DNA from: Psammoneis japonica
Taxonomy: Eukaryota
NCBI GenBank assembly: GCA_008632985.1
Contig: QPGO01000042.1
Coordinates: 310,001-374,000 of the forward strand
Direction: 5' to 3'
DNA: 64,000 nt
Positions 292-48,749 of the stretch are shown one piece after another. The notes below the pieces were generated by a model. The model did not search any database, was not told where the DNA came from, and saw only the letters and a list, made by a program, of their open reading frames with translations. A program made the translations under genes and the position numbers. Every line of letters starts with the position of its first letter. Position 1 is the first letter of the stretch.

Positions 292-834
292 TTTTTTCTT
301 CCTCGAAACTCAACAAAACTCAATATGGAATGAAACGAAAATACACGATATATCGAGAAACCAACGTGCGACGACAATTAATAGAACTAACGAAGCAGGT
401 TGTCGATGCTCGATGCAGATGCACGATGCACGCATCTGGATTTCCCCTTCAGAAGTAAGTGAAAAAAGCAGAAAACCTTCCACGTGTCGACAGGATGATT
501 GTTTATGCAGATCTGCACGCCTGGCCCGCCACCTCAATCAATCATCCTGAATGACTCATCATCAGGAACTAACGGGGGGCCGACCAGGATCGTTGCGTCT
601 CAAATTATCTCAAGAGTTCGTTGCAGCCAGGGGAATGTCTGCTTGGCCTTGCATGTGCTGGCAAAACAGAGGTGGCATGGATCGAATGGAAGAACCCCCT
701 TTGTTGTCAATGCCATTGTCACCTCCCTCGTTTTCTCTTTTTTTTTTTGCTGAAAGGACAACACTTGGAATTGAGGTTCTCAGTCACGTCAACAACTCTC
801 AACTCGCTCAAAGTGTTGGAACATCAGGGGAAAG

Positions 835-1024
835 TGTCAGCCTGCCCCATGCAGGGCACATGGGCAGACTGTGTGCAGACAATTGTCAGACCATTTTAGA
901 TGGAAGAGATGGCAATCTCTGTGAGATCTTCTTTCACTCTTTCTCACTGGTGCACGTGTTGTCCACTGTCGCTGGTTTGCAGGGAGCTCTTTAGTGTGTT
1001 GCTCATGCCATTGGCATCCTGACA
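835..1024 (+). repeat. 5' LTR of Copia element 1
   Basis: Direct repeat of 7684-7869 with TG...CA termini. Confidence 0.9.
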
Positions 1025-7869: not shown

Positions 7870-7899
7870 GAAAGCTGAAATCCACAACATGACACACCA

Positions 7900-14479: not shown

Positions 14480-17400
14480 AAAGTGCCTTTCTTGTTGTCA
14501 CTCTCTAGATGGAACTGCGTAAACTCAGTTGTCTCTGCAGTCAAAGTTGCCAACAACCAGAGTGGCTCTTTCTGCTGCTCACATGCACGGCCTGCTTTTC
14601 TGGGGCATCTGGGCATTCCTGCTGCACATCAGAAAGGCTGTTCAGGCTGCCAAGGTGAGCCAACTTGCAATGCTCCATGTTGCGATGGCATCGCTGACAA
14701 AAACAAAATGGCCAGCAGCACAACTGTGGCCTGCCCCTGTCATTGATCCCACACAAACCATGGCCCATGAATGGTTGTCTGCATTTCTGTCATGAGCTGG
14801 ACAAGGGCATGCTTTGGAGGGAACACCAGCAATGGCGGGGGCACCGGAGCAGCTCCACTGACAACTCCAAGGTGAGATTTTGGATCAGAGTCGTCGTCCG
14901 TCACCAGCTTGAGGTTGTGAGCTTCCAACAGTTTGCAAAAGTTTTGTTTGGTCAGAGACATGCTGAGTCACAATGCAGCATTGTGGCAATTGAGGCTCAA
15001 TTGTTTGGAGGCTGGCAATGCACCCTCTTTTGGTCCAGCAAAGCATCCTTTGGGCATGGCAAGGAGAGTCATGCCTTGCAGAAGCACTTGTCTTTGCACT
15101 TGTCAGCATCTGGTTTGCTGCAGCTGATCAGGAATGACTGAAGAATCTTGTGTTGATTCTGTGCGTTTTCCACTGAGACTGTGCTGGACACCAACAACAA
15201 TTCCAAAAACGATTGATGCACCTTGAGGGAATTAAAACACTGTTGGCATGACTTCTCTTTGGCAAAAGTGACAAAGAACAATGATGTGATGATGATGCAA
15301 TGTTCAGCTGATCAAGAATGGACAAGACACAGTGCACGGTCGGGCAAGACATCAATGCTCTTGTCCATGTTGACTGTCTCTTGAAGCCAGTTGCCACACT
15401 CTTTCTCCAAAGCGTCAACAGCACTCTGCTCAATGACAACAACATTGTTGGTCAGCATTGACTGCAGAAGCTGTTGCAGGATGTTGCGTGCACCTTTTGC
15501 AAGTGACTCCACAGCAGGAGGTGTGCAGCGACTCTTGTTTGCCCCCTGCAACTTCATCATGACATTTCCAATGACCTTTTTGTTTTCATTTGTTGTGGGC
15601 TTGGTCAACAGTGTCTTCAACTTGGCAAGCACTTTTTGCAGTTGGAGCTCGCGTGGACTCATCTTGATGGAGTTTTCAAAACCGCCACAATGGTCTTCTC
15701 CACCAGACTCCATGGCACGATTGTTCATGATGAAGCCTCCTTTGGGTGGCAATGGCAAGAGCACATGCCAAAGAAACTTGGACGTCTTTGACATTTCTTG
15801 CAGTCGCAATGGAAGGGCAGGCCAAGCAAGCTGAAAGAACATCCCACTTGGTGGAATGGGCACATCAACCATGAGTGCCTTGGCATCATTGTCAATGGGA
15901 ACTGGCACGAGGGTGTCCAGTGCTTTCAAGGATGGGAAAGCAACAAGCCTCTGACAGGACCCCACTTGCTTTTGAACAGTGGCAATGCTGCTGCTTCTGC
16001 CACCTGCATCATGATGAGATCATCAATCTCCTGTTGATGATCTGGATGCATGACAAGACCATCCAGTTCCAGAGCTTTGATTTCGGCAAGCAGCTGCTGT
16101 GGAAGGATCTCGTAAATCCATTTTTGATCTAAAAGTTGTGCAGCAAATCAAATGTCTGTTTGTTGTTTGACACACTTGCGGCAATTGAATGATGCTCCAA
16201 TCTTGATTTTTCCATCGGCTCAGACAATGATGCAGATGCCCATCTCATCATCTTCCAAGGTGACTGGTTGCCGCCATTCCTCATGAAGTTTTTCCATGTT
16301 GTTCTTGCATTCTTGTCAGAGGTGTTGTGTCAAGCATTGTTTGAGTTGCGCCCGTGGCAATGCACGCCACAAGTCGAAGCTGTTTGGACAAATCTTGAAC
16401 TGCATCGCTCAGCTTCTTGCAGGTCTTGGGAGTTGCAAGATGGCATTTCTTTCCTTCCCATTCAATCCTTGGTTTCTTCTTTGCCATCTTGGAGTTGGCA
16501 ATTGTGGCAACAGTGTGCGTTGATGGAACGTGCAGCACGGAGCAAGTGACAGTCATCAGAAACTTGGTGTGTGGAGTCATGATGACCCGCCGCAAAAGAT
16601 CAATGAGTTGATTCATTCTGCAGAAAGTGGGCAGAAGCATGGCACGGTTGCAAGCAACATTCTGTGAGAAGTCAAGGTGCAATGACTGCAGCATTGTTGG
16701 CATGCAAGTTGAGACAATCTGATTGCTGTGGCGGGCACCAACATGCACAGGCAAATGGCAACAGCACCAGTGACAATGGAGACAACAGAAAGAAGCATGA
16801 TGATGTTGATTTTGCATGGCAGCAAGCACGTGATGGAAAGCATGTGTCAACTGAAATCGACATGTGTGCCAAACCAAAAATGCAACAACAACGGCAAGCA
16901 AAGATGCTGCAACCATGCGATGTGTGTTGCGACACATGTCAACAGCATGTCTCTTGAGTGGCAAATGAACGAGCATCATTGTTGATGCTTTGCGTTCCTC
17001 CCCTTGTTGTTGATTGTGGTGAGTGTGTGAAAAAAAAGCCAGAATGGAGACTGCGCTGAGGTGCGTGAGACGCAGATTTCTGCATGACCATGCCAAAAAA
17101 CTTTTCCTGCCAAACAAGTGTGACGCCAGCATGAGGCAATGGCTGTGCTTCCAACCCAACAACTGCATGCCAACAACATGCCAAAGCAAAGTTCATGACA
17201 ACTTGATGGGCTCCAGCCCCAGGTGGGACTTTTTGTGACATTGGGCCCCAAGAATTCTGCGCACAAGCTCCACAGTGAAATTGTCAAGCAATGGACATGT
17301 CAATGATTGCCAACAGAAAAAGAGGCAATTTTGCAATTGCATCTCCTCCTCCACACTTGAGGCACATTCTTTGCAGCATGTCTGGGCACATTCTTCAGAC

Positions 17401-17760: not shown

Positions 17761-17761
17761 A

Positions 17762-20700
17762 CATTTTGCACCCTTTGTGACTTTGAGCCCTTGGCCATTT
17801 TGCACCCTTTGTGCTTTTGAGCTCTTGGCCATTTTGTGCCATTTGTGATTTTGCACCCTTTGCTGCCATTTTGCGCCCTTTGTGATTTTGCGCCCTTGGC
17901 CATTTTGCACCCTTTGTGCTTTTGAGCTCTTGGCCATTTTGCGCCATTTGTGATTTTGCACCCTTTGCTGCCATTTTGCACCCTTTGTGATTTTGAGCCC
18001 TTGGCCATTTTGCACCCTTTGTGATTTTGAGCTCTTGGCCATTTGGCGCCCTTTGTGATTTTGCACCCTTTGCTGCCATTTTGCACCCTTGGCCATTTTG
18101 TGCCCTTTGAAGCACTGAGCACTTGGCCATTTTGTGCCCTTTGTGGCATTGAGCCCTTGGCCATTTTGCACCCTTTGCCACCATTTTGCACCCTTTGTGA
18201 TTTTGCCCCCTTGTCCATTTTGCACCCTTTGCCGCCATTTTGCACCCTTTGTGAGGTTAAGCCCTTTGTGATTTTGAGCCCTTTGGCCATTTTTCCACCC
18301 TTTGTGGTTTTGCACCCTTTGCCGCCATTTTGGCCCTTTGTGATTTTGAGCCCTTGGCCATCTTGCGCCCTTGGTCATTTTGCACCCTTTGTGACTTTGC
18401 GCCATTTGCGACTGTGCACCCTTGGCCATTTTGTGCCCTTGGCCATTTTGCACCCTTTGTGATTTTGCGCCCTTTGTGATTTTGCGCCCTTGTCCATTTT
18501 GCACCATTTGTGATTTTGTGCCCTTGTCCATTTTGCACCCTTTGCTGCCATTTTGCACCCTTGGAAATTTTGTGCCCTTTGAAGCACTGAGCACTTGGCC
18601 ATTTTGCACCATTTGTGGCATTGCGCCCTTGGCCATTTCACGCCCTTTGTGAGTTTGCACCCTTTGCCGCCATTTTGTGCCCTCTGTGATTTTGAGCCCT
18701 TGGCTGTCTTGCACCCTTGGTCATTTTGCACCCATTGTTGTTTTGCGCCATTTGTGATTTTGCGCCCTTGGCCATTTTGTGCCCTTTGTGATTTTGCGCC
18801 CTTTGCCAACATTTTGTGCCCTTTGTGATTTTGCGCCCTTTGTGATTTTGCACCCTTTGCCACCATTTTGCACCCTTTGTGAAAATGGCCAAGGGCTCAG
18901 TGCCACAAAGGGCAAAAAATGGCCAAATGCTCAATGCTTCAAAGGGCACAAAATGGCCAAGGGTGCAAAATGGCAGAAAAGGGTGCAAAATCACAAAGGG
19001 CGCAAAATTGAAAAGGGCGCAAAATCGCCAAGAGCTCAAAATCCCAAAGGGTGCAAAATGGCCAAGGGCTCAAAATCCCAAAGGGTGCAAAATGGCGGCA
19101 AAGGGTGCAAAATCACAAAGGGCACAAAATCACAAAGGGTGCAAAACAGCGGCAAAGGGCACAAAATCACAAAGGGCACAAAATGACCAAGGGCTTGAGA
19201 TGGCCAAGGGTGCAAAATCACAAAGGGTGCAAAGTGGCAGCAAAGGGTGCAAAATCACAAAGGGNNNNNNNNNNNNNNNNNNNNNNNNNNNNNNNNNNNN
19301 NNNNNNNNNNNNNNNNNNNNNNNNNNNNNGCGCAAAATCACAAAGGGCGCAAAATCACAAAGGGTGCAAAATCACAAAGGGTGCAAAATGATGGCACAGG
19401 GCACAAAATCACAAAAGGTGCAAAATCACAAAGGGCTCAAAATCACAAAGGGTGCAAAATGACGGCAAAGGGTGCATGATGACCAAGGGCTCAAAATCAC
19501 AAAGGGTGCAAAATGGCGGCAAAGGGTGCAAAATCACAAAGGGCGCAAAATGCTTGCCAAAGGCACAAAATCACAAAGGGCTCAAAATCACAAAGGGCGC
19601 AAAATTGTGGCAAAGGGTGCAAAATCACAAATGGCGCAAAATGGACAAGGGCGCAAAATCACAAAGCATGCAAAATGGCCAAGGGCACAAAATCACAAAG
19701 GGCTCAAAATCAAAAAGGGCGCAAAATGGCGACAAAGGGTGCAAAATCACAAAGGGTGCAAAATGGCCAAAGGTGCAAAATCACAAAGGGTGCAAAATGG
19801 CAGCAAAGGGTGCATTGTGGCCAAGGGCGCAAAATCACAAAGGGTGCAAAATGGCGGCAAAGGGTGCAAAATCACAGAGGGTGCAAAGTGGCAAAGGGCA
19901 CAAAATCACAAAAGGCGCAAAATGGCAAAGGGCGCAAAATGGCCAAGGGTGCAAAATGGCCAAGGGTGCAAAATCACAAAAGGGCGCAAAATGGCGGCAA
20001 AGGGTGCAAAATCACAAAGGGCACAAAATGGCCAAAGGTGCAAAATCACAAAGGGCTCAAAATCACAAAGGGTGCAAAATGGCGGCAAAGGGTGCAAAAT
20101 CACAAAGGGCGCAAAATGGCCAAGGGCTCAATGAAACAAAGGGCGCAAAATGGCCAAGTGCTCAATGCTTCAAAGGGCGCAAAATGGCCAAGGATGCAAA
20201 ACTGCAGCAAAGGGTGCAAAATCACAAAGGGTGCAAAATCACAAAGGGCGCAAAATGACCAAGGGCTTGAGATGGCCAAGGGCACAAAATCACAAAGGGC
20301 GCAAAATGGCAGCAAAGGGTGCAAAATCACAAAGGGTGCAAAATGCTTGCCAAAGGTGCAAAATCACAAAGGGCTCAAAATCACAAAGGGTGCAAAATGG
20401 CAGCAAAGGGTGCAAAATCACAAAGGGCACAAAATGGCCAAGGGCGCAAAATCACAAAGAGTGCAAAATGACCAATGGCTTGAGATGGCCAAGGGCGCAA
20501 AATCACAAAGGGTGCAAAATGGCGGCAAAGGGTGCAAAATCACAAAGGGTGCAAAATGGCCAAGGGCGCAAAATCACAAAGGGCACAAAATGACCAAGGG
20601 CACAAAATGGCCAAGGGCACAAAATCACAAAAGGGTGCAAAATGGCGTCAAAGGGTGCAAAACCACAAAGGGTGCAAAATGGCGGCAAAGGGTGAAAGTC

Positions 20701-23700
20701 ACCAAGGGCGCAAAATGGCCAAGGGCACAAAATCACAAATCACAAAGGGCACAAAATGACCAAGGGCTTGAGATGGCCAAGGGCGCGAAATCACAAAGGG
20801 CGCAAAATGGACAAGGGCGCAAAATGGCCAAGGGCGCAAAATCACAAAGGGCGCAAAATGACCAAGGGTGCAAAAACACAAAGGGTGCAATGTTGGCAAA
20901 GGGTGCAAAATCACAAAGGGCACAAAATCACAAAGGGCGCAAAATCACAAAGGGCGCAAAATCACAAAGGGCGCAAAATCACAAAGGGTGCAAAATGATG
21001 GCACAGGGCACAAAATCACAAAAGGTGCAAAATCACAAAGGGCTCAAAATCACAAAGGGTGCAAAATGACGGCAAAGGGTGCATGATGACCAAGGGCTCA
21101 AAATCACAAAGGGTGCAAAATGGCGGCAAAGGGTGCAAAATCACAAAGGGCGCAAAATGCTTGCCAAAGGCACAAAATCACAAAGGGCTCAAAATCACAA
21201 AGGGCGCAAAATGGTGGCAAAGGGTGCAAAATCACATGGGGTGCAAAATGGACAAAGGCGCAAAATCACAAAGCATGCAAAATGGCCAAGGGCGCAAAAT
21301 CACAAAGGGCTCAAAATCAAAAAGGGTGCAAAATGGCGGCAAAGGGTGCAAAATCACAAAGGGTGCAAAATGGCCAAAGGTGCAAAATCACAAAGGGCTC
21401 AAAATTACAAAGGGTGCAAAATGGCAGCAAAGGGTGCATTGTGGCCAAGGGCGCAAAATCACAAAGGGTGCAAAATGGCGGCAAAGGGTGCAAAATCACA
21501 GAGGGTGCAAAGTGGCAAAGGGCACAAAATCACAAAAGGCGCAAAATGGCAAAGGGCGCAAATGGCCAAGGGCGCAAAATGGCCAAAGGTGCAAAATCAC
21601 AAAGGGCGCAAAATGGCGGCAAAGGGTGCAAAACCACAAAGGGCGCAAAATCACAAACGGTGCAAGACAGCCAAGGGTGCAAAATCTCAAAGGGCGCAAA
21701 ATGGCAGCAAAAGGTGCATGATGGCCAAGGGCGCAAAATCACAAAGGGTGCAAAATGGCGGCAAAGGGTGCAAAATCACAAAGGGTGCAAAATGCTGGCC
21801 AAAGGTGCAAAATCACAAAGGGCTCAAAATCACAAAGGGTGCAAAATGGTGGCAAAGGGTGCAAAAACACAAAGGGCACAAAATCACAAAGGGCTCAAAA
21901 TCACAAAGGGCTCAAAATCACAAAGGGTGCAAAATGGCAGCAAAGGGTGCAAAATGGCAGCAAAGGGTGCAAAATGGCGGCAAAGGGTGCAAAATCACAA
22001 AGGGCACAAAATGACCAAGGGCGCAAGACAGCCAAGGGTGCAAAATCACAAAGGGTGCAAAATGGCGGCAAAGGGTGCAAAATCACAAAGGGCGCAAAAT
22101 GGCCAAAGGCGCAAAATCACAAATGGCTCAAAATCACAAAGGGTGCAAAATGGCGGCAAAGGGTGCAAAGTCACAAGGGGCGCAAAATGGACAAGGGTGC
22201 AAAATCACAAAGCGTGCAAAATGGCCAAGGGCACAAAATCACAAAGGGCGCAAAATCAAAAAGGGCGCAAAATGGTGGCAAAGTGTGCAAAATCACAAAG
22301 GGCACAAAATGGCCAAGGACTCAATGAAACAAAGGGCGCAAAATGGCCAAGTGCTCAATGCCTCAAAGGGCACAAAATGGCCAAGGGTGCAAAATGGCAG
22401 CAAAGGGTGCAAAATCACAAAGGGCGCAAAATGACCAAGGGCATGAGATGGCCAAGAGTGCAAAATCACAAAGGGCACAAAATGGCGGCAAAGGGTGCAA
22501 AATCACAAAGGGCGCAAAATGGCCAAGAGCTCAAAATCACAAATGGCACAAAATCACAAAGGGCGCAAAATGACCAAGGGCTTGAGATGGCCAAGGGCGC
22601 AAAATCACAAAGGGTGCAAAATGTCGGCAAAGGGTGCAAAATCACAAAGGGTGCAAAATGTCGGCAAAGGGTGCAAAATGACCAAGGGCACAAGACAGCC
22701 AAGGGCTCAAAATCACAAGAGGCGCAAAATGGCGGCAAAGGGTGCAAAATCACAAATGGCACAAAATGGCCAAAGGCGCAAAATCACAAATGGTTCAAAA
22801 TCACAAAGGGCGCAAATTGGAGGCAAAGGGTGCAAAATCACAAAGGGCACAAAATGGACAAGGGCGCAAAACCACAAAGCATGCAAAATGGCCAAGGGCT
22901 CAAAATCACAAAGGGCGCAAAATCAAAAAGGGTGCAAAATGGCGGCAAAGAGTGCAAAATCACAAAGGGCACAAAATGGCCAAGGGCTCAATGAAACAAA
23001 AGGCGCAAAATGGTCAAGTGCTCAATGCTTCGAAGGGCACAAAATGGCCAAGGGTGCAAAATGGCAGCAAAGGGTGCAAAATCACGAAGGGCGCAAAATC
23101 ACAAAGGGCATGAAATGACCAAGGGCTTGAGATGGCCAAGGGCACAAAATCACAAAGGGCGCAAAATGGCGGCAAAGGGCGCAAAATCACAAAGGGTGCA
23201 AAATGGTGGCAAAGGGTGCAAAATGGCCAAGGGCTCAAAATCACAAAAGGCACAAAATGGCAGCAAAGGGTGCAAAATCACAAAGGGCGCAAAATCACAA
23301 ATGGCACAAAATCACAAAGGGCGCAAAATGGCCAAAGGCTTGAGATGGCCAAGGGCGCAAAATCACAAAGGGTGCAAAATGGCGGCAAAGGGTGCAAAAT
23401 CACAATGGGCGCAAAGTGGCCAAGAGCTCAAAATCACAAAGGGCGCAAAATGGCCAAGGGCTCAAAATCACAAGGGCGCAAAATCACAAAGGGTGCAAAA
23501 TCACAAAAGGCGCAAAAAATCACAAAGGGCGCAAAATGACCAAGGGCTTGAGATGGCCAAGGGCGCAAAATCACAAAGGGTGCAAAATGGCGGCAAAGGG
23601 TGCAAAATGGCCAAAGGCACAAAATCACAAAGGGCTGAAAATCACAAAGGGTGCAAAATGGTGGCAAAGGGTGCAAAATTACAAAGGGTGCAAAATGGCC

Positions 23701-24062
23701 AAGGGCACAAAATCACAAAGGGCGCAAAATGACCAAGGGCACAAGACAGCCAAGGGCTCAAAATCACAAAGGGCACAAAATGGCGGCAAAGGGTGCAAAA
23801 TCACAAAGGGTGCAAAATGGCCAAAGGCACAAGATCACAAAGGGCTCAATGTCACAAAGGTTGCAAAATGGCAGCAAAGGGTGCAAAATCACAAAGGGTG
23901 CAAAATGGCCAAGGGCGCAAAATCACAAAGCGTGCAAAATCACAAAATCAACAAGAGCTCAAATTCACAAAGGGCGCAAAATGCCAAAGGGCTCAAAATC
24001 TCAAAGGGCGCAAAATGGCGTCAAAGGGTGCAAAATCACAAAGGGCACAAAATGGCCAAGGG
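17762..24062. repeat. 17/20-bp satellite array with polarity switch at ~18880 and an N gap at 19265-19329
   Basis: Units TCACAAAGGGTGCAAAA and TGGCCAAGGGTGCAAAA (17 bp) and TGGCGGCAAAGGGTGCAAAA (20 bp); reverse orientation over 17762-18880. Confidence 0.95.
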
Positions 24063-26398: not shown

Positions 26399-27040
26399 CA
26401 AGCAAATCTGGATGGAGGGCTGTGTTGCAATTGGTGGTTGGTTGAGACATGTGGATCGAGTGGTGCTGCAGCGACACGCTCACAATCTAATCAGGTTTGG
26501 GTTCGCATTGACGGTGTCACTGCTTTCTGTTTAGACTTGAGGTGTCGTGCTTGTTCTTTCGTTGCATCAAGATTTGTTCGCTTTGTCAGAGCCAAGACAA
26601 AAAAGACAGAGCAAAATGGTTTCGAATGCAACTCGTCATGGACGATTGTTTGTTGTGTTGTTTGCATGGAACGTGCAGCTGTAGAAATGGCACTGAACTG
26701 TGCGCGATGCATCAGAATTCGGATTGATGCGCACGATGATGCGTCTCGTGTCGCTTGTTGTGATGTCCACAAAAACAGCTTGCAATGGCAATGCTCGCAA
26801 AGATGGTCACTGTCCTCACATGTGCAACGGGTGTGAAGGGACTGCGGCATTGGGTGATGTGCCCGAGCGTGTGCTCAACAATGTCGGTTGACATGAATGA
26901 CACAGGACTGATCACCCTGACGTCGGGTGGCTGTGTGAACCCGTCATCACAACACAGAGAAAGTGTGGCCATCATGACCATGCAGACTCACAGCTGCATG
27001 TTCCCGGTGCGGGACCTTCACACCCTTTCTCTGTTGTGGG

Positions 27041-28585
27041 ATGGCAGCAGCGGCAGCACCAGCAGCAGCACTTGCGGCGTCAGCCGCGGCAGCTGACGTT
27101 GACGCAGTTTTACAAGTTTGTGGTGTTGCTGACCAGAACGCAAGGGCGAGGTTGGTCTTCTGTGAAGGGTTCGCGACTTTGGAAAACATCGCAGTGATGG
27201 AGAGTGACCACGATGTGGAAGACATGGCGCAGAGGGCGTCTCGTCGCACGGCGGCCCACGGACGTGTGACTCTTGGGACTGTTCAGATCAAGAACTTGCA
27301 GGCGCTAGTGTGGTGGTGCCAGGATTTGCTCAAACAGAATCAGCCATTGGTTGCGGCAGACTTTAATGTGGCAGCCATGGCTGCAGCCTGGAATGGCAGG
27401 CACATCAAAAAGGAGCGCACGGATTCGGACGCGTCGGCAAGCGGTCTCGTAAAGTTTGAGCCCGATGACTTCGATGTGTGCGAAGATGCTTTCCTGAATC
27501 TCTTGGCACAGAAATTTGGCATGTTGAAAGAACCCCTTCGCCATGTCGTAAGGACAATGCCAGCTCCGGCTGCATTCACGGATGCTCAACAACAGTGCAC
27601 GCACCAGATGCCATTGAATGGCGCCGCATGTGACGAGGACAACCGCAGCGTTTGCCGCATGTTGAAGGAACACTTGGTCGACATGGCAGGATGGGCATGG
27701 ATCGAACCGTTTGACGTGACAGAAGACGGACGTGGAGCATTCAACGCATGGGTTGACCATTGCAATGGACAGGGCGAGTTGAGCAAGCGCATCCATCTGG
27801 CTGCGGCAACTGTTGAAACCTTGTTTTACAAAAAGGAAGGATCGCTCCCGTTCGAAAAGTTCAATGAGAAACTTGCAAGTGCTTTCGCCACTTTGAACAA
27901 ATCACCGGACGACCACAAATCTGAACGACAGAAAGTTGACATTCTTCCAAAAGGGATCCGAACGGATGACACTCGTCTTGTTGCAGCAACGGCTGTCATC
28001 AGCAGTCAGCACCCTCGTGACTTCGCGGGGGCATGTGCTTGTTTCTCATCCGAAGTCTCTCGTTTGCACGCAGGTGCTCAGTTGGAAGCCCGGCGTTGCT
28101 CGAAGCGCAAGATTTCTGAAATGAGCCGTGGTGGCGGCGGTGGCCGCGGTTTTTATCGAGGTCGCGGTCGCGGAGGAAGATTTGGACGTGGGGGTGGACG
28201 CGGACGTGGTGGTGGCCGTCAAGGCAGAGGTGGTGACCACACTACGATGATCAATGGAGTTGATGTGTCCGACCCTGCAAGGAGCTTCAGCGCTCAAGAA
28301 TGGGAAAAGTTGCAGCATGATGGGGGCATGAGCTGCGTGTTCCAAGCTCGCAAACGAATGGGTCATGGACGCGGTGGTGGCCGTGGGTCTCCCGCAGGTC
28401 GACAAGGATGCGATGGGGGCAGCAGGCATGCAGCTGAAGCCCAAGTCTGTCAAGATGGCCAAGGCCAAACCCAACAACAGGATCAGGAGCAAAGGAGTGG
28501 TGGGCGTGGTCGCGGCGCTGACCGGGATCGCGGTGGACGCAATGGACGTGCCTTCGGTCGGGGAGCCTACAATGGTTCCACCTGA
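27041..28585 (+). pseudogene. gag of Copia element 3 (RGG-rich C-terminus)
   Basis: 514-aa ORF with DGRGAF..DHCNGQGE gag motif and GRG repeats; Tyr mostly replaced by Cys/His. Confidence 0.85.
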
Positions 28586-28594
28586 CTCCTTGGG

Positions 28595-31500
28595 GTGGCA
28601 ACAGCCACTGGAGCATTGGCGCATTTGGCGCATTTGTCGTTTTTGCTTGTGTCACTCTTCTTGCTGTTGACCAAACCCCACCCAATGTCTTGTTTCAAAG
28701 GAAAGGCGACAAAGAGGCACATTGCCGTGACATCAAAACGTGTGATCCGATCGACGAGTTCTGCACAGATGACAAATTTGACGACACCTGGGTTCATCGC
28801 TCGAAATGAATGTGATGCTCACGCGGACACTTGTTGCGCTGGGGCGAACTGGAAGCTCATGGAGATGACAAATGAAGTGTGCGAGGTGCATCCATTTCTG
28901 GACTCTTGTGAGCCGATCAAACAGATTCCTGTGGCACGTTGTTGCACCGCATGGACAGATCCAGAAACGACTCATGAATGTTCACTGGTTGGTGATCAAA
29001 TGCTCTGGTTTGGGACCGACATGGAACACTCACTTTTGAATCCCAACCAACTCCGTGCGTGCAACATGCCCGCACACGACAACCCTTGCGACACCCGAAA
29101 CGGATTTGGCATTGAAGCTGACGAAGCTTTCATCCCTTTCAATGCCACGGGGACAATTGTGTCTTTCAAGTCTCGTGTTCCGACGGATTGGGAAGTGCAG
29201 AACTTGCCGGTTGTGCTGTTGACAGGTGACGTGTGGGATCCAGCACAGGTGGACATGGGCTTGCCGGAGCGCACCAGAGAGCAGGCGGAGATGCGCACTG
29301 TTCGATCATCAACCTCTGGCATGCGACAAGAACAGGTCTCGGAATTAAGGAGCGAGAAGGCAAAGTCCCAAGCAGCACGCTGGGGCGAGGTCGAAATGCA
29401 ACTGTCGTCCATGTCTCCCATCTGTCAACTTCAATCGTTTTGCGACAGGCTCATCAGCTAAGTGAACGTGGCTTGCACATGTCGCGACAACATGGACAAG
29501 AGGCAGAGGGCAGTCAAAGATTTGTGCAGCAAGGATTGGCACTCGAAGGTTGACGCTGAAGAGCTGGCCCGAAAATGGAGTGTCGGTTTAGAAACGGCAA
29601 AAGATGCTCTCAATGTAACAACTCAGTGCGGTGTACGAACGGCGACCCAGCCGATGTCACAAAGAGTGAGGGTTGATCATCTTGACTTGCATCGGAAGCG
29701 TCTGAAAGGAACATGGTTTGTGGACACTTTGACATCCAAGGTGAAGTCTTTGCTCGGTGACACGTGTGCCAATGTTTGTGCTCAGGGCAAATTCGTGAAG
29801 GTTGTGCCGATGACCGCTGGGTCGGAGGCAGGTTTGTCTCTTGTTGAATTCACAGACGACGTGGGTGCACCAGAATGTCTTGTGTTGGACGGGGCAGGAG
29901 AGTTCACAGGAAGGAGCACCGAATTTGCGAGACAAGCACGACGCATGAGAACACAATTGGGAACATCAGAGCAGGGTCGGAAGAACCAGAACCAGGCAGC
30001 AGAGCGCGAAATTGGTTTCTTGGCCAAACGTTGGCGGCTGCGGATGACGAAGAAGAAGGTGCCAAAGCCATTGTGGGATTTTGGTCTTGTTTGCGAGTCG
30101 GAATTAGTGTTGCGCATGGCAAGAGGCAGGGACAAGAGGACTGGACATGAAGAGGTCACTGGGCAGACACCAGAGACAGGCGAGCATTTGGATTTTGGTT
30201 TCCACGACATGGCATGGTGGTGGGACAGGCCCAACAAGCCGAGTGCAACTGACGATCCTCGAAGGCTTGGACGGTGGCTTGGCATCTCACACAAAGTTGG
30301 CTCGGACATGTGCCATTGGATCATTGCGGAAAGCGGGAAGATTGTCTCCAAAACATCGGTCGAGCACGTGACACAGGCTGACATGGCACAACCGGATGTT
30401 CGCGTTGAGGTCGACAACTTTAATGAGCAGCTGGAGAAGCAATTGGATGACACTGACTTTGTCTTAAAAGGCGATGAAGCTGTGCCCGCATTCGTGTTGG
30501 ACGATCTTGCAATTGATGGCAACCTCGGTGTGGAACATGAGGGCGGCATCACGCCAGAGGACGAGGAACATGGCAACATGCCATTGCCCGACGAGCGACC
30601 AGATGACGACGACGAGCAGGCAATCGATCAACACCTGGGAATGGAACTCATGTTTGACATCGGAACTGACGGCGAGCGACGTGGTGTTGCAACGAAACGT
30701 GCAAGAGGACAGGATGGGCGTCCAATTGGGACTCGGCATCAAAACCCATTGTTTGACACTTGCGAACACGAAGTGGAACATGCCGACGGAACCACAGACA
30801 AGCACACAGCCAATGTCATTGCCGAGAACATGTTTGCTCAGGTCAACAGCGAGGGCAACCAGCGCTCCATCTTACACGAGATGCAGGACCACGAGAGGAG
30901 TGACAATGCGGTGTCGATTGCTGACGGCACCGTGCGAACCACTGGCGGGAAGGAGAAGAAGAAGATCACAACAAAAGGATGGAAGTCATTGGTCGGATGG
31001 AAGGATGGCAGCTCATCTTGAGTCAAACTCAAAGATCTAAAGGACTCTGACCCCATTGAAGTTGCTGAGCATGCTGTTGCGAACAGGTTGACGGAGGAAC
31101 CTGCTTTTGCTTGGTGGGTCACACATGTCCTGCGCAAACGGAGTCGCATTGTGTCCAAGGTCAAGAAGAAGTGCTGGCGCACGACTCACAAGTTTGGGAC
31201 CCGATTGCCCAAGTCCACGGAGGACGCTTTGCGGATTGATCAGGAAACGGGGACAGATTGTTGGGCTCGTGCAATCAACAAGGAGATGGCAAAGGTGAAG
31301 GTGGCATGGCGCGAGCACGAAGCTGAAACCCCTCAAGTCGTCCGGGAAGGCAAGAGTGCAACTTTGTGTGGTTGTCAGGAGATCAGGTGCCACATGGCAT
31401 TCGACATTGAAATGGATTTCACCAGAAAGGCAAGGTTTGTAGCTGGCGGACACACGACAGAGGCCCTGGCATCGATCACTTGCTCCAGCGTGGTTTCCAG

Positions 31501-32920
31501 AGACAGTGTGCGACTTGGATTCTTGTCAGCAGCCTTGAATGGTGTCGACATTGCGGCGATTGATCTGGAGAATGCTCATCTCAATTCACCGTGCGCAGAA
31601 AAGACATGGTTTGAAGGCGGAAAGGAATGCGGCGAGCACGAAGGAAAGGTGCTTGTTGTTGCTCGGGTGTTGTGTGGCTTAAAGAGCTCGGGACACTCTT
31701 GGAGGTCTGCACTGTCATCGGTCTTACGTGACTTGGGCTTCGAATCGACGAGAGCGAACCCAGATGTCTGCTTGCGTGCGGCGACTCGTGAGGATGGGCG
31801 TGAGCATTGTGAAATGCTTTTGGTTTGTGTCGATGACACACTGATCATTTCCCATCAAGGGAAGTCTGTTGTTGCTGCAATGGGTGAACACTGTGCCATG
31901 AAGCCCGGCAGCGAAGGAGAACCAGAAGTTTGTCTTGGAGCTAACGTTGAGAAGGTTCAGACTCAGGATGGGCGCACAATCTGGGCGAGTTCACCAAGGT
32001 CACATGTCAAATCGGCAATTGAGACTGTGGAAGGCCTGTTGGATGAAGACGGCAATGGAGAGGTTCTGAAGAACAGTGCAAAGGATCCACTGCCCCCAAA
32101 GCACAAACTGGAACTGGACGTGACGGATGAGTCAGGCCCCGACTTGGTGGACAGGCATTTGCAGCTGACAGGGATTTGTCGTTGGGCGATCGAGTTGGGT
32201 CGCATCGACATCTTGCGTGAGGTTTCAATCCCATCTCAATGTCAAGCTAATCCGAGGAAAGGACATCTTGAGGCATTGCATCATGTGTTTGCGTGCATGA
32301 AGAAACACCAGAACGTCGGACGCATCGGATTTGATCCAAAGGAACCAGTGATTGTTGAATCTGTTTTCAATTCGAACGCAGACTGGACCGAGTTTTACGG
32401 GGACGTCGAGGAGGAACTGCCGCCACGGGCACCGAAGCCTCGTGGTAATCCGGCAAACATCTGTGCATTTGTTGACGCTAACCATGCAGGGAATGTTGTC
32501 ACTCGCAGGTCGCACAGCGGGATTCTGATGTTCGTCAATGACGCGCCAGTGGCATGGTTCAGCAAGCGGCAGAACACGGTGGAATCGGCAATGTTTGGAA
32601 GTGAATTGGTTGCGATGCGGATTTGTAAGGAATTGATTGTTGCTTTGCGTTGCAAGCTTTGTATGTTTGGGGTTCCCCTTGAAGGACTGGCAAGCATCTT
32701 TTGTGACAATCGCGGTGTTGCAAAGAATGCAAGTGTGCCCGAGTCGGTTTTGCACAAGAAGCACAATGCCATCAACTGCCATGTTGTGCGAGAAGCGGTC
32801 GCAGTGGGAATTGTTCGTGTTGGCAAGGAGGACACGGAAACGAACTTGGCCGATCTACTTGCGAAGGTGGTTGCAGGAGAGCAGCGATGGAAGCTTTGCT
32901 CGTGCATTTTTTGGCAATGT
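28595..32920 (+). pseudogene. pol of Copia element 3 (protease, integrase, RT, RNase H) with two in-frame stops
   Basis: DAHADTCCAG; LDGAGEF..QNQAAEREIG; FTRKARFVAGGH, LCGLKSSG, VCVDD (degenerate YVDD); FVDANHAG, FGSEL, TETNLADL. Stops at 29459 and 31019. Confidence 0.92.
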
Positions 32921-33263
32921 CCCGACACCAAGGCCAGGTGCCTGTGGCTCTCACCCACGCATTGTGGCCTCCCAAGCCAGTGTGTCTGGTGGTTTAATTT
33001 GGGTTCTTGTGGTTTGCCTCTCTGTGAGAGGATGTCACATGTTCAGACGAATCGGCATTGTCATTGCCATTTCGCGGGGACCGAGTAAATCTGGATGGAG
33101 GGCTGTGTTGCAATTGGTGATTGGTTGAGACACATGGATCGAGTGGTGCTGCAGCAACACGCTCACAATCTAATCAGGTTTAGGTTCGCATTGACAGTGT
33201 CACCACTTTCCATTTAGACTCAAGGCATCGTGCTTGTTCTTTCGTTGCATCGAGATTTGTTCG

Positions 33264-38360: not shown

Positions 38361-38953
38361 AAGCCCTTGGCCATTTTGTGCCCTTTGTGATTTTGCGGCT
38401 TTGGCCATTTTGCACCCTTTGTGATTTTGCACCCTTTGCTGCCATTTTGCGCCCATTGTGATTTTGCACCCTTGGCCATTTTGCACCCTTTGTGACTTTG
38501 CACCCTTTGCGCCATTTTGTGCCTTTTGTGATTTTGCACCCTTGGCCGTCTCAAGCTCTTGGTCATTTTGCGCCCTTTGTGGTTTTGCGCCCTTGGCCAT
38601 TTTGTGCCCTTTGTGATTTTGCACCCTTTGCCGCCATTTTGCACCCTTTGTGATTTTGCGCCCTTGGCCATCTTAAGCCCTTGGTCATTTTGTGCCCTTT
38701 GTGATTTTGCGCCTTTTGTGATTTTGTGCCCTTGGCCATTTTGCACCCTTTGTGATTTTGCGCCCTTTGCCGCCATTTTGCACCCTTTGAGATTTTGCGC
38801 TCTTGGCCATTTTGTGCCCTTGGTCATTTTGCACCCTTTGTGATTTTGCGCCCTTTGTGCTTTTGCACCCTTGGTCATTTTGTGCCCTTTGTGATTTTGC
38901 ACCCTTTGCCGCCATTTTGCACCCTTTGTGATTTTGTGCCCTCTGTGATTTTG
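38361..38953 (-). repeat. Second block of the 17/20-bp satellite
   Basis: ttttgcaccctttgtga and cccttggccattttg units. Confidence 0.95.
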
Positions 38954-38989
38954 CAAAATTGGTTCTGCCATTGCTGCAAACTTGGTGGC

Positions 38990-41935: not shown

Positions 41936-44479
41936 AATCATCCCAAGAGATGTCTGGTGTCAATTTCAAGAAGGGACAACCCGAATTTTCTGTTTGTTTT
42001 GGTCAACTGGTGCTGTTGGTTGTTGTGCATTTTGTTTTGCCTTTTTCCATTGGCAGCTGATGAATTCTTTGGCTTCATGCTGTTGGCTTTGGGGAGCATT
42101 TGCACTGTTTTGCTGTTGCAGGTGCTCATGAGAGCGCTGCACTGTTTGCTGATGTGGGTGATGACAGCCTTGCAAGTTTTGTTTGTTTGTGCCATTCAAC
42201 CTTTTGACAGTTGTGTGTTTTGTTTTGTCTTGTTCCATTGGCAACTGTTTGAAGTGCGGTTTCCGGCACGGGCAGGAGTGGACGGAGCATCATCTTTGTC
42301 CATCTTTGGGAGGGTCAGGGGGATCTTTGCTGGTGGGGCTGGCCTGCGGCATTGGAGAGATTGTCATGGTGACAAGAACGCAGCACAAAACACACGCAGA
42401 ATTCCACATGTGGAAACCATTGATGTGAAGCTGTGCAGAAAAGTGGCTCATAAATTAACAAATTTGTGGCTTGCAGGCAACAGGCCTGCTTGCCATTTCA
42501 TCTCCACCTGAAGAGGAAATTGCAGATGATCTTTCCGTTGGAACAATTTTGGATCGCTGAAACTGCACCCGACAACCCACTGCTGAAGATGGTGGCGAAC
42601 TCATTTTGACATGCCTGAAAGCTGTGTCAATGAAGAAGACATCAAATTTGTTTGTTCTTCAGATTCTAAGTCAGACAATGTGTGTCAAGTTTGAACGTGG
42701 GTGCTGTTTCACCTGTCAAGGGAGAGCAATCTGATCTGCCTCCAACAGCGCACAAGCAACATTGTCAAAACCTCGTTGCCGGCATTGTTTGCGCGCAAGT
42801 GCGAGCCATCTCTTTTTTTTTTTCCGAGCTGCTGTCTCTGTCTTGATCCCAATCATTTGCACGGGCGTCTTGTGTCTTTACAAAGTTGCATTTGCAATGG
42901 AGCGACAAGAACAAGACAAGCCATTGCACCAATGTTTGTCAAATCACAAGTGCACGAGTGTTGCCATGAATCTGTCATCATTTGATTTTTTTCCTTCATT
43001 GGAGAGTCGGATTGGTTGCATTGCCACAAGGAGAAAACGGACGGCACTTTTCTGAAGAAGATCTTCATTTGTTTCTTGATTGCATGCAGGACAAGTGCTT
43101 GATGGAATCAACACAAAACCGTCCAACGTGGCATGTGCACAATGACTTTGGGAAAGATGTGAAGATGACATTTGGCGAGGCCCTTGCAGAGGTGTGGAAA
43201 GTGGCAAAAGACAAGATGAAAGGGTGTGGAGCGCGGGTGCAGAAAATGATTGGGAAGAGTTTTGATGAAATCGATGATCCCATTGAAGACCTTCTTCTCT
43301 TGCACATGGGTGTTGACCTGCTTGGCTCGCTGTGGCCAGCTCTGCCATTTGGCACAAGACTTGATCAATCTGTGCTTCATTCACCAAGGCCAGCTGGAGA
43401 CTGCCCTCGATTGAAGGCGCCACTTTGTTGGAGTGGAAGGCATGTTGTTTGGAGCCGCACGCATCATTTTCAACCTCATCATCCTTCCATTGTGGTGCGC
43501 ATGATGCATCTTGTTGTTTCATTGTTTTTTACAATGTCACATGATTGAATTCTCATGTTTGATTTCCATGGGTTTTTCATGGTCAAGGACCCTGCTAGAG
43601 TGCGGCATGCCCTGACAAGAAAGTTTGCTTTTTCAATTGTGGTGCATGTGAACATCACACGTCCATTTGTTGAGTCTAACAAAGAAGCAGATTTTTTGCT
43701 GAAGTCTTCTGGATTTCTGCAGGCAATCTCAGTGCAGTCTGCACGTCACCCCCAAAGGTGGAAAAAGCACGAAGAACCTGTTCTGCACAGAGTCTCACTC
43801 GCGCGATGTCGCGCATGAACATCCCAGATTTTCTTGCAGCAGGAGCTTGTTTTCTGAACAACAAGCAGTTTTCAGGTGAGCAGAAGCAGATTGAACAGAT
43901 TTTGAGCCATTTGGCAAAAAACGTCATGATGTCGGAAGTTGAGTTTTTCGGTGACACTTGTGAATGGTCTTGACAACCAACTCCTTCAGCATTGATGCAG
44001 TCTTCTTCTCATTTGCTTTTCCGGTGAGTCTGTGAAACATCTCAGTCCATGAGATCATCTCAAAGTGCCTGTGTTTAGCACATTGTGCGTCATTTGTTCA
44101 TCGTCTCTTTTCTCTCGTTCTGCCTGCAGCACACACTGCACTGTTGTTTCCAAATCATTGGTTTGCACAATCTGCCGGAAACACATCCTCTTGGCATCTC
44201 ATGCATTGGCACCGGCACCTGCACAAAACAGCAAATGTGAAAGTCTGCCACACACTGCACTTTTGCTTTGCTGATCTGTTTCGCCCAGTCAACTGCATCC
44301 ACTTTTCCCATGCAAAGTCTTTGACATCAGAAAAAGTCTGCTTCCAGCTCGTGGTCATCTCAATGCATGGTGTGCAATGAAGTGTCGTCCGAGTGTGCAT
44401 CTGCTGAGTGATCGTTGAAGTCAGTGGCCAACTCCTCATCAAACCTTTCACCGAAAACAGTGGTTTCTTGCGGACTCGA

Positions 44480-47400
44480 GGACCTGATGCATTGCTCTCA
44501 CTCACAGCAACTCCACGGCCTCTTCCTCGGGGATGTTGCTCTCTGTAGATTCGACGGTGTCAACTGAAGCAGTGCCGGTGGGGTTCGTCAAGCCTGGTGC
44601 ATTGTTCTCACTCGTTTCCAATGCAGCAGCCTCTTGCTCAGCGTTGTCGCTCTTTGTGGGCTCGACGGCATCAACTGAAACAGCACTGGTGGGCTTCGTC
44701 AAGACTGACTCTGGCTGATCCTTCTCAGTCACATCAGCAGCCATCGTCACGGTCGATGCCACAAATGCCAAAGCCTTCCTCTTGTTTGATTCCTTCCCAG
44801 AAACGGGAGTGGCGTTGTAATTGGCAACAAGACGCGAGCAATGGACCTCGCAAGTGCCATTTTTTGGTTCTCTTTGCCACGAGTGCTCCCTTCCAATTCA
44901 GCTCTGGCTGTTGCAGCTGCTGCACGCTCCTCGTCAGAGACCTGGTGCTTTTCGCGAATGGTCCAAATTTTCTGACTCTTGGCTGCCCTCGCCAAGTGCT
45001 TTTCTGCCGTTGCACAGCACTGACATTTCCAGCAAAGCAGGGCCCGGCCACACAACTCGTTGAACCAATCGTTGTGTTTGTCACCTCTTTTTTGGATGTC
45101 TCGACTTTCTTTGGTTGACTTTTTGCGAATTCCGCGGCTCTGTTGGTCTTGCTCCTTGGCGGCCCTTTTCCTCTTCCGTTCTGAATGAAGAGCATGGTCA
45201 GTGGCAAGTTCTTTTTGTCGACGGTCCTGGTGGTGCCGTTGCTTGATGCGTTCCTTGTTCTGCACAATGATGAGACCAAGTGTTGCGACTTCTGTCTCAC
45301 GCACTTGCCTCGCGTGTTCACGATGATGCTCGACCCTCCCTTCTAGTGCATCGAGGCGTTCCTGCTGCTCACCGGAAAGGCTGCTCAAGCTTTGAAGGTG
45401 CGCCAACTCGCAACGCTCCATTTTGCGATGGCATCGCTGACAAACAAAATGGCCAGCACGGACCCCTGTCATTGACCCTGCGCAAACCATGGTCCGAGAA
45501 TCATTGTCCACATTTTCGTCATCAGCCGAACAAGGGCACACTTCGGCGGGAATGTCAGCAATGGCGGGGGGGNNNNNNNNNGGGGGCAGGGCAGCTCCAG
45601 TGAAGACTCCAAGGTGAGATTGGAACAGAGTCGCCATCCGTTGCCAGCTTGAGGTCATGAGCTTCCAACAGCTTGCAAAAGTTCCGTTCGGATGGAGACA
45701 TGCCGAGCCACAACGCATCGTGGCAATTGAGGTTCAATTGTTTGGAGACCAGCAATGCACCCTCCTTTGGTCCAGCAAAGTGTCCTTTGGGCATGGCAAG
45801 GAGTTGCGCCTTGTAGAAGCAATCGTCTTTGCACTTGTCAGTGTCTCATTTGCTGCAACTCATCAGGAACGACTGGAGAAGCTTGTGTTGATTCTGCACG
45901 TTTTCCGCCGAGACGATTCCGGACGCCGACAGTAATTCTAAAAACGATCGATGCACTTTGACAGAATTAAAACGATGTTGGTGCAACGTCTCTTCGGCAA
46001 AAGCGACAAAGAAAGATGACGTGATGATGATGCGGTGTTTCGTCGATCAAGAACAGACAAGACAAAGTGCGCGGTTGGGCAAGACATCAATGCTCTTGTC
46101 CACGTCGACCGTCTCTTGGAACCATTTGCCATGTTTTTCTCCAAAGTGGCAACAGTGCTCCGCTCAATGACAATGACATTGTTGGTCGGCATTGACTGCA
46201 GAAGCCGTTGCAGGACGTCACGTGCACCTTTTGCGAGAGATTCCGTAGTTGGATGTACGCAGTGACTCTTGTTTGCCCCCTGCAACTTCGTCATGACGTT
46301 TCCAATGACCTTTTTGTTTTCATTTGTCATCGGCTTGGCCAAAGACGTCTTCAACTCGACAAGCGCTTCTTTCAATTGGAGCTCACGTGGACTCGTCTTG
46401 ATGGAGTCTTCGAAACCCCGCAGTGATGTTCCCCAACAGACTCCATGGCTCGATTGTTTGTGATGAAGCCTCCCTTGGGTGGTGGAGGCAAGAGCATGCG
46501 CTGAAGAAACTCGTTGGTCTTGGACATTTCTTGTGATTGGCGCGGGAGTGTTGGCCAAGAAAACTGAAAGAATGTCCCACTTGGTGGAATGGGCACATCA
46601 ACCATGAGTGCCTTGGCAGCGTCGTCGATGGGAGCCGGTGCCAGGGTGTCCAGGACTTTGGACAATGGCAATGCGACAAGCCTCTCTCCGACGGGTCCCC
46701 ACTTGCATTCAAACAGAGATGACGCCACTGCTTCTGCCACCTGCATCATGATGAGATCGTCAATCTCCTGTTGATGATCTGGATGCACGGCGAGGCCATC
46801 CAGTTCCAGAGCTTTGATGTCGGAGAAGTTGCTTGGGAAGGAGCTCGTAAATCCGTTTTTGATCTAAAAGGCGTGCGGCGAATTGAATGTCTGTTTGTTG
46901 TTCGATGCGTGTGCGGCAGAGGATGACGCTCCAATCTTGATTTGTCCATCGGCTCGGACAATGACGTAGATGCCCATCTCATCATCTCCCAAGGCGACTG
47001 GCTGCCACCATTCCTCGTGAAGCTTTCCCTTGTTGTTCTCGCATTCTTGTCACAGGTGTTGCACCAAGCGTTGTTTGAGCAGCTCAGTTTTGTTGGTCGT
47101 GACGGATGTCGATCTGTCGCCACCTGTGGCAACACGGGCCGCAAGTGAAGCCGTTCAGACAAATCTTGAATCGCATCGTTCAGCTCCGTGCAGGTCTTGG
47201 GAGTCTTTGGAGAGAACTTTTTGCCTTCCCATTCGACCACTGGTTTCTTCTTCACCACCTTGAAGTTGGCAACAGCGGCAAGAGTGCACAGCACAATGAA
47301 GGTGCGGTGCAGAGCGCGCAGCATTGTCAATCTGCATCGATGCGAAGAACTCGACAAAGCAGTTGGACGAAATGTGACAACAATGATCGGCACATGTGGC

Positions 47401-48749
47401 GTCATGGTTCTTTGCTTGCCTTGTTGCTGTTGCAGTGGTGACAGCTGCGGCAAACAAATGGTTGTGATGTCGATTCACAGGAGCAGCAGCCGTCTGAAAC
47501 TTGGTGTGCGGAGTCGTAACGGCTCTCCACAAAAGAGAGCAACAAGTCGATTCAACCTGCGGAAAGCAGATGGAAGCACGGTGTGGTTGTCAGTGATGTT
47601 CCACGAGAAGTCACGGTGCAATGATTACGGCATGGTCGGCTTTCCTGTCAATGTGCTTTGATTGCTGTGGCAGACGCCAATGTGCACGGGCAAATGGCAA
47701 CAGCGACAATGAGAATGGAGATGAGAGAAAGAAGCGTGATGACATTGATTTTGCATGGCAGCAAGCACGTGATGGAAGTGCGCATCAATCAAGATCAAAC
47801 TGTGCAACGAACCAAAAACGCAACAAGAACGGCAAGCGACGATGCTGCAACCATGCGACGTGTGTTGCGATGCACGTCAACAGCATGTCTCTTGAGTGGC
47901 GAATGGACGAGCGTCATCGTTGATGCACCATGGTGCTTTGCACTGCTTGCTTCGCACCTCGTTGATTGATTGTGGCGAGTGTGCGAAAAAAATGCCAGAA
48001 CGGTGACAGTGCTGAGGTGCGCCAGCTGTAGATTTCTACACAACCGCACTAAAAAAAATTTCCCGCCAAAGGAGGGATGCTGGGATGAGGCCCAACGCGG
48101 TCCAAAACCCCATTTTTCGCCAAAATGAGTTTCCACTGGCCCCAGCAGCCGACTGCTGTAACATCACACTGTGCAACACTGGTTTCCCGGCTGTGGTTTG
48201 CACAATTGTCATGCAAATCTTTCAGTGTTTGATTGCTGCAATGCAGTGCGCGCCGCGGAGCTCCTGGCAACATCGTCAGTCCGGCAGAAACAGCACGTGC
48301 ACTCCTGCTTGACATGTTTTTGGTGTGCATCTGCATGAAACAGAGAACATTTTTGTCTGCGCATCATTGTTGTCCCTGCATCAGGTGTGCATCAGTGATG
48401 GCTGCAGCCCAGTCGATGGCCGTCATCTGTCTTGGTGTGTCATGACGTCTGCTCGCCGCTCTCTGTTCTGACTCGCGCGAAAACCTGCGCAGCACCGGCA
48501 CTTGCATGCACCGGCGCTCATCATTCATTCATTGAACGATCACACCCACGATGAGCAACCCGTTTGACGTGTGCAGCCTGTGGAATGATCACCTCCCTTC
48601 TGCAGCATGATTGCACGCCATTTGTGACAGTCAGTTAAGCTTGGACACCATGTCTGTCCTTCTGTCTCAATTTTAGCTTATAATAAATAAATTTTTGGCA
48701 TGCAGATAACAGGCCTGCTCGCCATTCATCTCCACCTGAAGAGGAAATC
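44480..48749 (-). mobile_element. Unclassified repeat, copy B, with a disrupted minus-strand ORF containing a GIY..KIG motif, coiled coil and Cys-rich region
   Basis: Reverse complement of 46921-46977 reads MGIYVIVRADGQIKIGASS; ORF fragments 44747-47453; ends at gaggaaatc directly before tRNA-Met. Left boundary uncertain. Confidence 0.65.

Follow-up and report, generated by a model that had tools for sequence, protein, structure and literature searches.

In the chlorarachniophyte Bigelowiella natans (Rhizaria), mutation-accumulation lines have revealed hypermutation of TpA to TpG or CpA in the nuclear genome (bioRxiv 10.64898/2026.01.13.699255). According to the main text of this preprint, 231 of 302 nuclear mutations fell in two integrated viral regions, and 230 of the 231 were A>G or T>C, all of them at TpA. 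The reported rate is approximately 6e-7 per site per generation, and 11 of the 15 lines carried mutations in the region derived from a nucleocytoplasmic large DNA virus (NCLDV). The genome contains 124 clusters that are poor in TpA and rich in CpA and TpG, and a set of TpA-poor coding sequences is enriched for reverse-transcriptase and DDE domains. An ADAT2-like adenine deaminase is proposed by the authors. Here, we describe the corresponding signature in the diatom Psammoneis japonica (Stramenopila). The window, a stretch of 64,000 nucleotides (assembly GCA_008632985.1, contig QPGO01000042.1, positions 310,001 to 374,000 of the forward strand), contains a block of about 48 kb (610..48640, no strand assigned) of TpA-depleted, TG/CA-enriched repeats without a recognisable host gene. 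A Copia-type retrotransposon within the block records the direction and timing of the change.

The two cases have in common the target dinucleotide, the products, the involvement of both strands, and a rate excess of roughly 1,000-fold. In both, silent foreign-derived DNA is hit beside normally mutating genes, and the affected sequence is poor in TpA, rich in CpA and TpG, and associated with reverse-transcriptase/DDE coding sequences. The hosts differ, a diatom here versus a chlorarachniophyte, and so do the targets, which are long terminal repeat (LTR) retrotransposons and other repeats in the window versus integrated NCLDV and virophage DNA in B. natans. Depletion is near saturation here (TA at 6% of expectation), whereas the NCLDV region of B. 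natans is given a rho of 0.45 in the preprint. De novo events were measured in B. natans, whereas the window displays the end state of the sequence only. The preliminary description of this DNA, made by a model from the sequence alone, had stated that it knew of no described system of this type; the preprint supplies one. Diatoms and stramenopiles are unmentioned in the main text of the preprint, from which the word 'trinucleotide' is also absent, and no report of the TpA>TpG/CpA signature in diatoms was found in the literature covered (CC-licensed PMC articles and bioRxiv). New relative to that text are the LTR proof of post-integration timing, the hierarchy of 3' neighbours, and limits at the 100-bp scale; the preprint's supplements may hold context data.

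Other known systems resemble the case in part. Fungal repeat-induced point mutation (RIP) also introduces wholesale transitions into repeat and transposon DNA, destroying coding capacity and leaving neighbouring genes intact. However, RIP causes C>T and G>A changes and creates TpA, whereas A>G and T>C changes destroy it here. Decay of CpG through 5-methylcytosine likewise converts a self-complementary dinucleotide of silent DNA into TG or CA on either strand, but the dinucleotide and the base are different, and TpA loss in the young Copia element is about ten times faster. ADAT2/3, TadA, and ADAR perform A>I chemistry, with inosine read as G. In the natural ADAT/TadA substrate, A34 is preceded by U33, which suits a 5' T or U. 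These enzymes act on RNA, however, and the ADAR context, in which a 5' A is tolerated, does not fit the untouched ApA; they are candidates named in the B. natans preprint. APOBEC3 is a host deaminase that hypermutates retroelements in a dinucleotide context, but it converts C to U in single-stranded cDNA before integration and is strand-asymmetric, whereas the changes here affect A:T pairs after integration and are symmetric.

TpA loss and its direction

In each 2-kb bin from 2,001 to 48,000, the observed/expected ratio (O/E) of TA is 0.01-0.12 (1-13 TA per bin). In the adjoining gene region (48,001-60,000), the ratio is 0.56-0.75, with 73-105 TA per 2-kb bin. Altogether, 125 TA were counted in 1,001-48,600, where base composition predicts 3,003 and the gene-region O/E predicts 1,985. 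The whole-block O/E is 0.04, and TA stands at 6% of the gene-region-based expectation, a loss of about 94%. When the satellite arrays are removed, 121 TA remain against 1,662 expected. Bases 1-500, to the left of the block, hold 15 TA at an O/E of 0.40-0.44. The near absence of TA over about 48 kb and its abundance in the genes, on which the preliminary description was built, are thus borne out, as is the confinement of the loss to repeat DNA lying beside normal genes.

The expected products are enriched in the block, with an O/E of 1.70 for TG and 1.74 for CA. Other AT dinucleotides are undepleted (AA 1.34, AT 0.94, TT 1.28), so that the loss is not a general drift from AT to GC. CG is at 44% of its expected count, and ordinary CpG loss supplies about half of the TG/CA excess. 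The gain of TG and CA (3,803) agrees within 6% with the summed losses of TA (1,860) and CG (1,717), so that two processes, CpG decay and a TpA-specific loss, are superimposed. Replacement of CG by TG or CA is evident in the block and coexists with TA loss, but it cannot account for it. Older parts of the block are depleted in both TA and CG.

The direction of the change is seen most clearly in the Copia element. Its hypermutated gag-pol reading frame (26978..33085, + strand) is a single frame with three in-frame stops (TGA, TAA, TGA), and the open reading frame (ORF) at 31,022-33,085 within it matches Pfam RVT_2 (E 5e-11). Across the frame, TA has fallen to 15% of expectation and CG to 83%. 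The TA O/E of the Copia bins is 0.08-0.12, as against 0.26-0.98 in 80 environmental relatives. When 26 relatives were compared over 16 Tyr columns, defined by Tyr in at least 70% of the sequences, the window had Cys in ten, His in five, and Tyr in one. Comparison with 120 relatives gave 22 Tyr columns, 18 of which are aligned in the window as 10 Cys, 7 His, and 1 Tyr. Of 2,451 cells in the relatives themselves, 2,237 are Tyr and only 39 are Cys or His; a single protein, P0019, supplies 15 of these 39, and the other 119 of the 120 relatives keep Tyr.

The motifs TCSSVVSRD, LCGLKSSG, and HCEMLLVCVDD, quoted in the preliminary description as Copia motifs with Cys or His in place of Tyr, are present in ORF 31,022-33,085, and the catalytic YVDD of the reverse transcriptase reads CVDD. 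A single TG/CA>TA step reverses 25 of the 63 amino-acid differences from the family consensus, whereas the CpG rule reverses 8 and each of seven other dinucleotide rules 0-12. The Tyr replacements at 17 of 18 columns, together with paralogues that retain TA, uphold the proposed direction from TA to TG/CA. The claim that both strands are hit also stands, since TG and CA are almost equally enriched and Tyr became Cys ten times and His seven times.

Two public records carry the same signature. In the public protein P0019, which has no precomputed Pfam hit, 15 of 18 Tyr columns hold Cys or His, as do 11 of 13 in the metagenome contig L018, which has a TA O/E of 0.26. Their patterns of Cys and His are unlike that of the window, which indicates independent mutated copies. 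In two other metagenome loci related to Copia, L027 and L028, the CG O/E is 0.03-0.06 while the Tyr columns are near normal. Strong CpG decay without the TpA signature shows that the two processes are separable. Named Copia relatives include Fragilaria crotonensis. A further pol relative, P0097, is filed publicly under the name of a bacterial metagenome-assembled genome (Marinobacter sp.) and is probably a mis-binned eukaryotic contig.

Other transposon domains are scarce in the block. A Pfam scan of 156 ORFs (19+67+70) gave only the Copia RVT_2 match and a sub-threshold gag_pre-integrase (4,200-4,682) as in-block matches. The 67+70 further ORFs yielded neither a LINE or DDE domain nor that of any other transposon, and 137 ORFs were without a confident domain. 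A tblastn search with eight Copia relatives as queries found a single Copia element. The preliminary description had listed Copia, long interspersed nuclear element (LINE), miniature inverted-repeat transposable element (MITE), and satellite sequences. Copia and the satellite are present, although the satellite is uninformative; the Pfam scans show no LINE domain, and the MITE is unconfirmed. Restriction to TpA, the A>G/T>C direction, and confinement to transposon-derived DNA, as in B. natans, are all found in this locus.

Limits of the affected DNA

The edges of the block are sharp, with the transition taking place within about 100 bp. On the left, the limit lies at about 610, the last dense TA being at 606. 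On the right, it lies between about 48,640 and 48,675, with the first dense TA at 48,636-48,688. A tRNA-Met (CAT) gene predicted by ARAGORN (48750..48822, + strand) begins about 80 bp past this limit. Just outside the block at the right edge is a TA-rich copy of a short repeat (48646..48751, + strand). The in-block copies of this repeat, at 40,422-40,503 and 42,444-42,523, have TG or CA at most of the TA sites of the edge copy. The two decayed in-block copies of 48,646-48,822 are without the tRNA part; a mobile element linked to the tRNA could explain this arrangement, as could what is left of duplicated tRNA loci.

A second, partly TpA-depleted tract (60920..63600, no strand assigned) contains 14 TA in 2.7 kb, and normal density returns from 63,605. 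This limit falls inside a continuous Gypsy-type pol ORF (62445..63980, + strand) with RVT_1 and RNase H domains in Pfam. Before 63,600, the ten Tyr columns of the ORF read as six Cys, three His, one Phe, and no Tyr; after it, the four Tyr columns read as three Tyr and one Cys. The 1,156 bp of the ORF before the limit contain 7 TA, and the 380 bp after it contain 21. The limits of hypermutation thus match neither element nor repeat ends, which suggests that they are limits of chromatin domains. The extent first proposed, 610..48690, holds for the block up to about 48,640 but misses this second tract. The terms 'repeat-targeted' and 'RIP-like' used at that stage go beyond what the locus shows; with one edge some 80 bp short of a tRNA gene and another inside a Gypsy ORF, the limits look like those of chromatin domains.

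Between TA-poor 60,251-60,500 and 61,000-63,600 lies a microsatellite-like segment (60,531-60,571) with 13 TA in about 40 bp. It is either outside the affected chromatin or renewed by slippage.

Timing, context, and candidate explanations

The two LTRs of the Copia element date the changes relative to integration. The 5' LTR core (26401..26580, + strand) is 91% identical to the 3' LTR core (33084..33263, + strand). Over the core of about 178 bp, the pair is discordant between TG and CA at five sites, with TG in the 5' LTR and CA in the 3' LTR at all five. The remaining differences are one TG versus TA, three CG versus CA, and one other. Since the LTRs of one insertion start identical, their disagreement places the changes in genomic DNA after integration, in keeping with the dsDNA process of the preliminary description. 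An indirect estimate by hand from the LTR pair puts the TpA rate at some hundreds of times that of the background, and change at TpA is thus roughly two to three orders of magnitude faster than background substitution. With TA at 15% and CG at 83% of expectation in the element, TpA loss was roughly ten times faster than CpG loss. The sequence at 26,581-26,600, 3' of the 5' LTR (CTTTGTCAGAGCC), resembles what we take to be a tRNA-Met-type primer-binding site of Copia elements, with an internal TA>TG change.

Survival of TA depends on the 3' neighbour. Measured against 77 unmutated relatives, the surviving fraction in Copia is 0.009 for TAT, 0.10 for TAC, 0.15 for TAG, and 0.20 for TAA, and comparison of the whole block with the gene region gives the same order. 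The residual tetranucleotides of the block include 26 TTAA and no ATAT, versus 18 and 41 in the gene region. In TpA, the 3' neighbour of A is equivalent to the 5' neighbour of T. The counts point to T as the preferred 3' neighbour, with loss ranked TAT > TAC > TAG > TAA; this ranking is firmer than the exact figures.

Strand clustering of the changes varies among the sequences. Two copies of an unclassified repeat family, copy a (14598..17114, + strand; CpG-poor and TA-poor) and copy b (45341..48070, + strand; TA-poor with CpG largely retained), are approximately 78% identical. At 59 aligned dinucleotides, one copy has TG where the other has CA, and the copies also pair (TG,CG) 60 times and (CA,CG) 49 times. 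A runs test on the 59 discordant sites gave z = -0.64. By hand, 10 strand runs were counted at 25 inferred Copia sites, versus 13.3 expected, and 3 in the 15 sites of P0019 (z about -2.8). All five LTR sites go in one direction, and no strand clustering is seen in the Gypsy ORF.

The account that we consider probable is hypermutation of TpA to TpG/CpA at the DNA level, after integration, in silent transposon-derived repeats, limited by chromatin and of the kind found in B. natans. In this process, A:T pairs at TpA are converted to G:C on either strand of silent repeat DNA, turning Tyr codons into Cys or His and thereby destroying transposons, as in the change from YVDD to CVDD. The process stops over a distance of about 100 bp, apparently where active chromatin begins. 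The match in signature suggests the same kind of chromatin-guided genome defence as in B. natans. Enzymatic deamination of adenine at 5'-TA is put forward tentatively as the leading route. An adenine preceded by T would be deaminated to inosine and read as G, and the putative catalyst would be a TadA/ADAT2-type protein or another protein with a deaminase fold.

Passive decay of a modified base at heterochromatic TpA, either a thymine derivative of the 5-hydroxymethyluracil or 5-formyluracil type or N6-methyladenine, could give the same products by mispairing or mis-repair with no dedicated mutator. 5-Substituted uracils do mispair with G. The pattern is strand-symmetric, confined to a domain with sharp limits, and accompanied by CpG decay, a mark of methylated silent DNA, all of which would suit such decay. 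We nevertheless regard it as unlikely. The Copia element has lost 85% of its TpA but no more than 17% of its CpG, with a single difference between its LTRs over about 178 ordinary positions, so that decay would have to be extraordinarily fast. To our knowledge, no TpA-specific modification has been described in diatoms. In addition, the bursts reported in the main text of the B. natans preprint, with 2-45 mutations per line and none in 4 of 15 lines, suit a switched enzyme better.

ADAR-like editing of double-stranded transposon RNA, followed by reverse transcription and insertion, is disfavoured as an explanation. In its favour, the best-characterised affected elements are LTR retrotransposons, and ADARs favour a 5' U, according to the discussion of the B. 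natans preprint (bioRxiv 10.64898/2026.01.13.699255). However, the disagreement at five TG/CA sites between LTRs that were identical at integration excludes RNA or cDNA editing before integration. ApA is undepleted (AA O/E 1.34) although ADARs tolerate 5' U or A, and this misfit and the LTR discordance are the points on which the candidate failed. Both strands are hit about equally, non-coding repeat copies and the DNA between elements are likewise depleted, and the limits do not track element ends. RNA editing is thus very improbable.

A sequencing or consensus artefact, in which true TA with a modified base is miscalled as G or C, deserves no more credence. Palindromic modified motifs give strand-dependent miscalls on some platforms, and the sequencing platform of the read run X1 is not on record. 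Contigs assembled from X1 reproduce the mutated sequence of the window, however, with no difference over 41,955-42,554 (60.7x) and 44,103-44,625 (54.7x), at depths close to the 55.6x of the gene region. The same run also carries paralogous contigs that retain TA at homologous sites, including those compared with copy b. Among 40 listed differences between window and contigs, the window has TG or CA against TA in the contig eight times, and the reverse is never seen; 531 further differences lie beyond these 40. Reproduction of the sequence by contigs of single-copy depth, together with paralogues that keep TA, indicates that the mutated sequence is not an assembly artefact, the possibility that the preliminary description had itself raised. 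The Tyr>Cys/His signature of the public records P0019 and L018 points the same way. Native composition, selection against TA, or GC-biased gene conversion among repeats is the least credible explanation, for although the TA-free satellite proves that some repeats here lack TA by unit, relatives of the Copia element stand at a TA O/E of 0.26-0.98, replacement of catalytic and other conserved Tyr would be unfavourable under selection, and biased conversion should also have lowered AA, AT, and TT, which it has not.

Several points weigh against chromatin-limited hypermutation of DNA as the account of this locus. Only an end state is visible in the window; neither an enzyme nor a modified base was observed, and no mutation was caught arising de novo. 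Adenine and thymine as the target are indistinguishable from the sequence; the label 'adenine-directed' in the preliminary description went too far in this respect, because TpA is its own reverse complement. The hierarchy of 3' neighbours rests on surrogate baselines, taken from environmental relatives and from the gene region, and some of the residual TAs may have arisen anew. The read comparison was made on contigs assembled from X1 rather than on raw reads, and the assembly itself may have been built from X1, which is hence not independent of the sequencing chemistry. The tRNA-flanked edge was seen once only, and a join made during assembly, or recombination of a mutated with an unmutated copy, could have produced the limit inside the Gypsy ORF. 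Lastly, each 500-bp bin in 41,000-48,500 is above single-copy depth, so that the region is multi-copy and homology-dependent triggering, as by the duplications that trigger RIP, is compatible with the data; yet TA-retaining paralogues coexist, and one limit lies inside an element.

A broader and more speculative possibility is that chromatin-guided, TpA-specific A:T>G:C editing is an old defence common to at least two lineages of the stramenopile-alveolate-rhizarian group, Rhizaria and diatoms. In diatoms, it would saturate on transposons, erasing every Tyr codon and every TAA or TAG stop at less than 1% ordinary divergence, and active genes, a tRNA gene among them, would fence it off on the scale of nucleosomes. 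The catalyst would then be an undescribed natural enzyme that acts on chromosomal adenine (or thymine) with a preference for T-A-T.

One 2026 preprint on one chlorarachniophyte is the sole description of the signature that was found, and the enzyme is not identified there. The process may be widespread; a case near saturation on ordinary diatom retrotransposons would show that it extends beyond a single alga and beyond viral inserts. Phylogenetic profiling for the enzyme would become possible, through genes that B. natans shares with affected diatoms and that unaffected diatoms lack, and the question could be pursued in organisms amenable to transformation and gene editing. There are also consequences for annotation, since loss of Tyr codons and of TAA and TAG stops produces long spurious ORFs and elements missed by domain searches, as with P0019 and the 137 ORFs without a confident domain. 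A natural enzyme that converts A:T to G:C on chromosomal DNA would be of interest for base-editing research.

Other repeats and neighbouring genes

A 17-bp satellite with the unit ATTTTGCGCCCTTTGTG occupies 17762..24053 (no strand assigned), with an N gap at 19,265-19,329, and a second array, recognised by its matching repeat unit, lies at 38363..38955 (+ strand). TG positions in the satellite are invariant, and TG/CA alternation occurs solely at the CpG position, which reads CG in 45, TG in 22, and CA in 54 of the 141 units of the long arm. The unit natively has no TA, and the satellite therefore gives no evidence on TpA mutation. The orientation of the longer array turns from + units to their reverse complement near 18,860-18,940, which forms a large inverted junction.

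The repeat family of copies a and b is also represented in a second run, X2, which is labelled 'DNA?'. A 2,156-nt contig of high depth, approximately 90% like 45,616-48,073, retains TA, which makes it probable that the family has an unmutated, expressed paralogue. No X2 contig matching the block at 99% or more was seen. In the gene region, X2 contigs skip GT..AG intervals of 92-131 nt at 49,464-54,661, as spliced transcripts do, and the run thus behaves as a transcriptome would.

To the left of the block, an open frame on the - strand (1..123) starts at an ATG at 123 and runs off the window. A gene may start here, some 500 bp away from the left limit. To the right, an exon of an adenylate kinase (53753..54319, + strand) was identified in the TA-normal gene region by Pfam scan and homologue search, and it assigns the window to a pennate diatom rather than to Bigelowiella. 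Its best named relatives are all from diatoms, with up to 77% identity, and include proteins of Nitzschia inconspicua, Fistulifera solaris, Pseudo-nitzschia, Fragilaria crotonensis, Cylindrotheca closterium, Epithemia, and Mayamaea.

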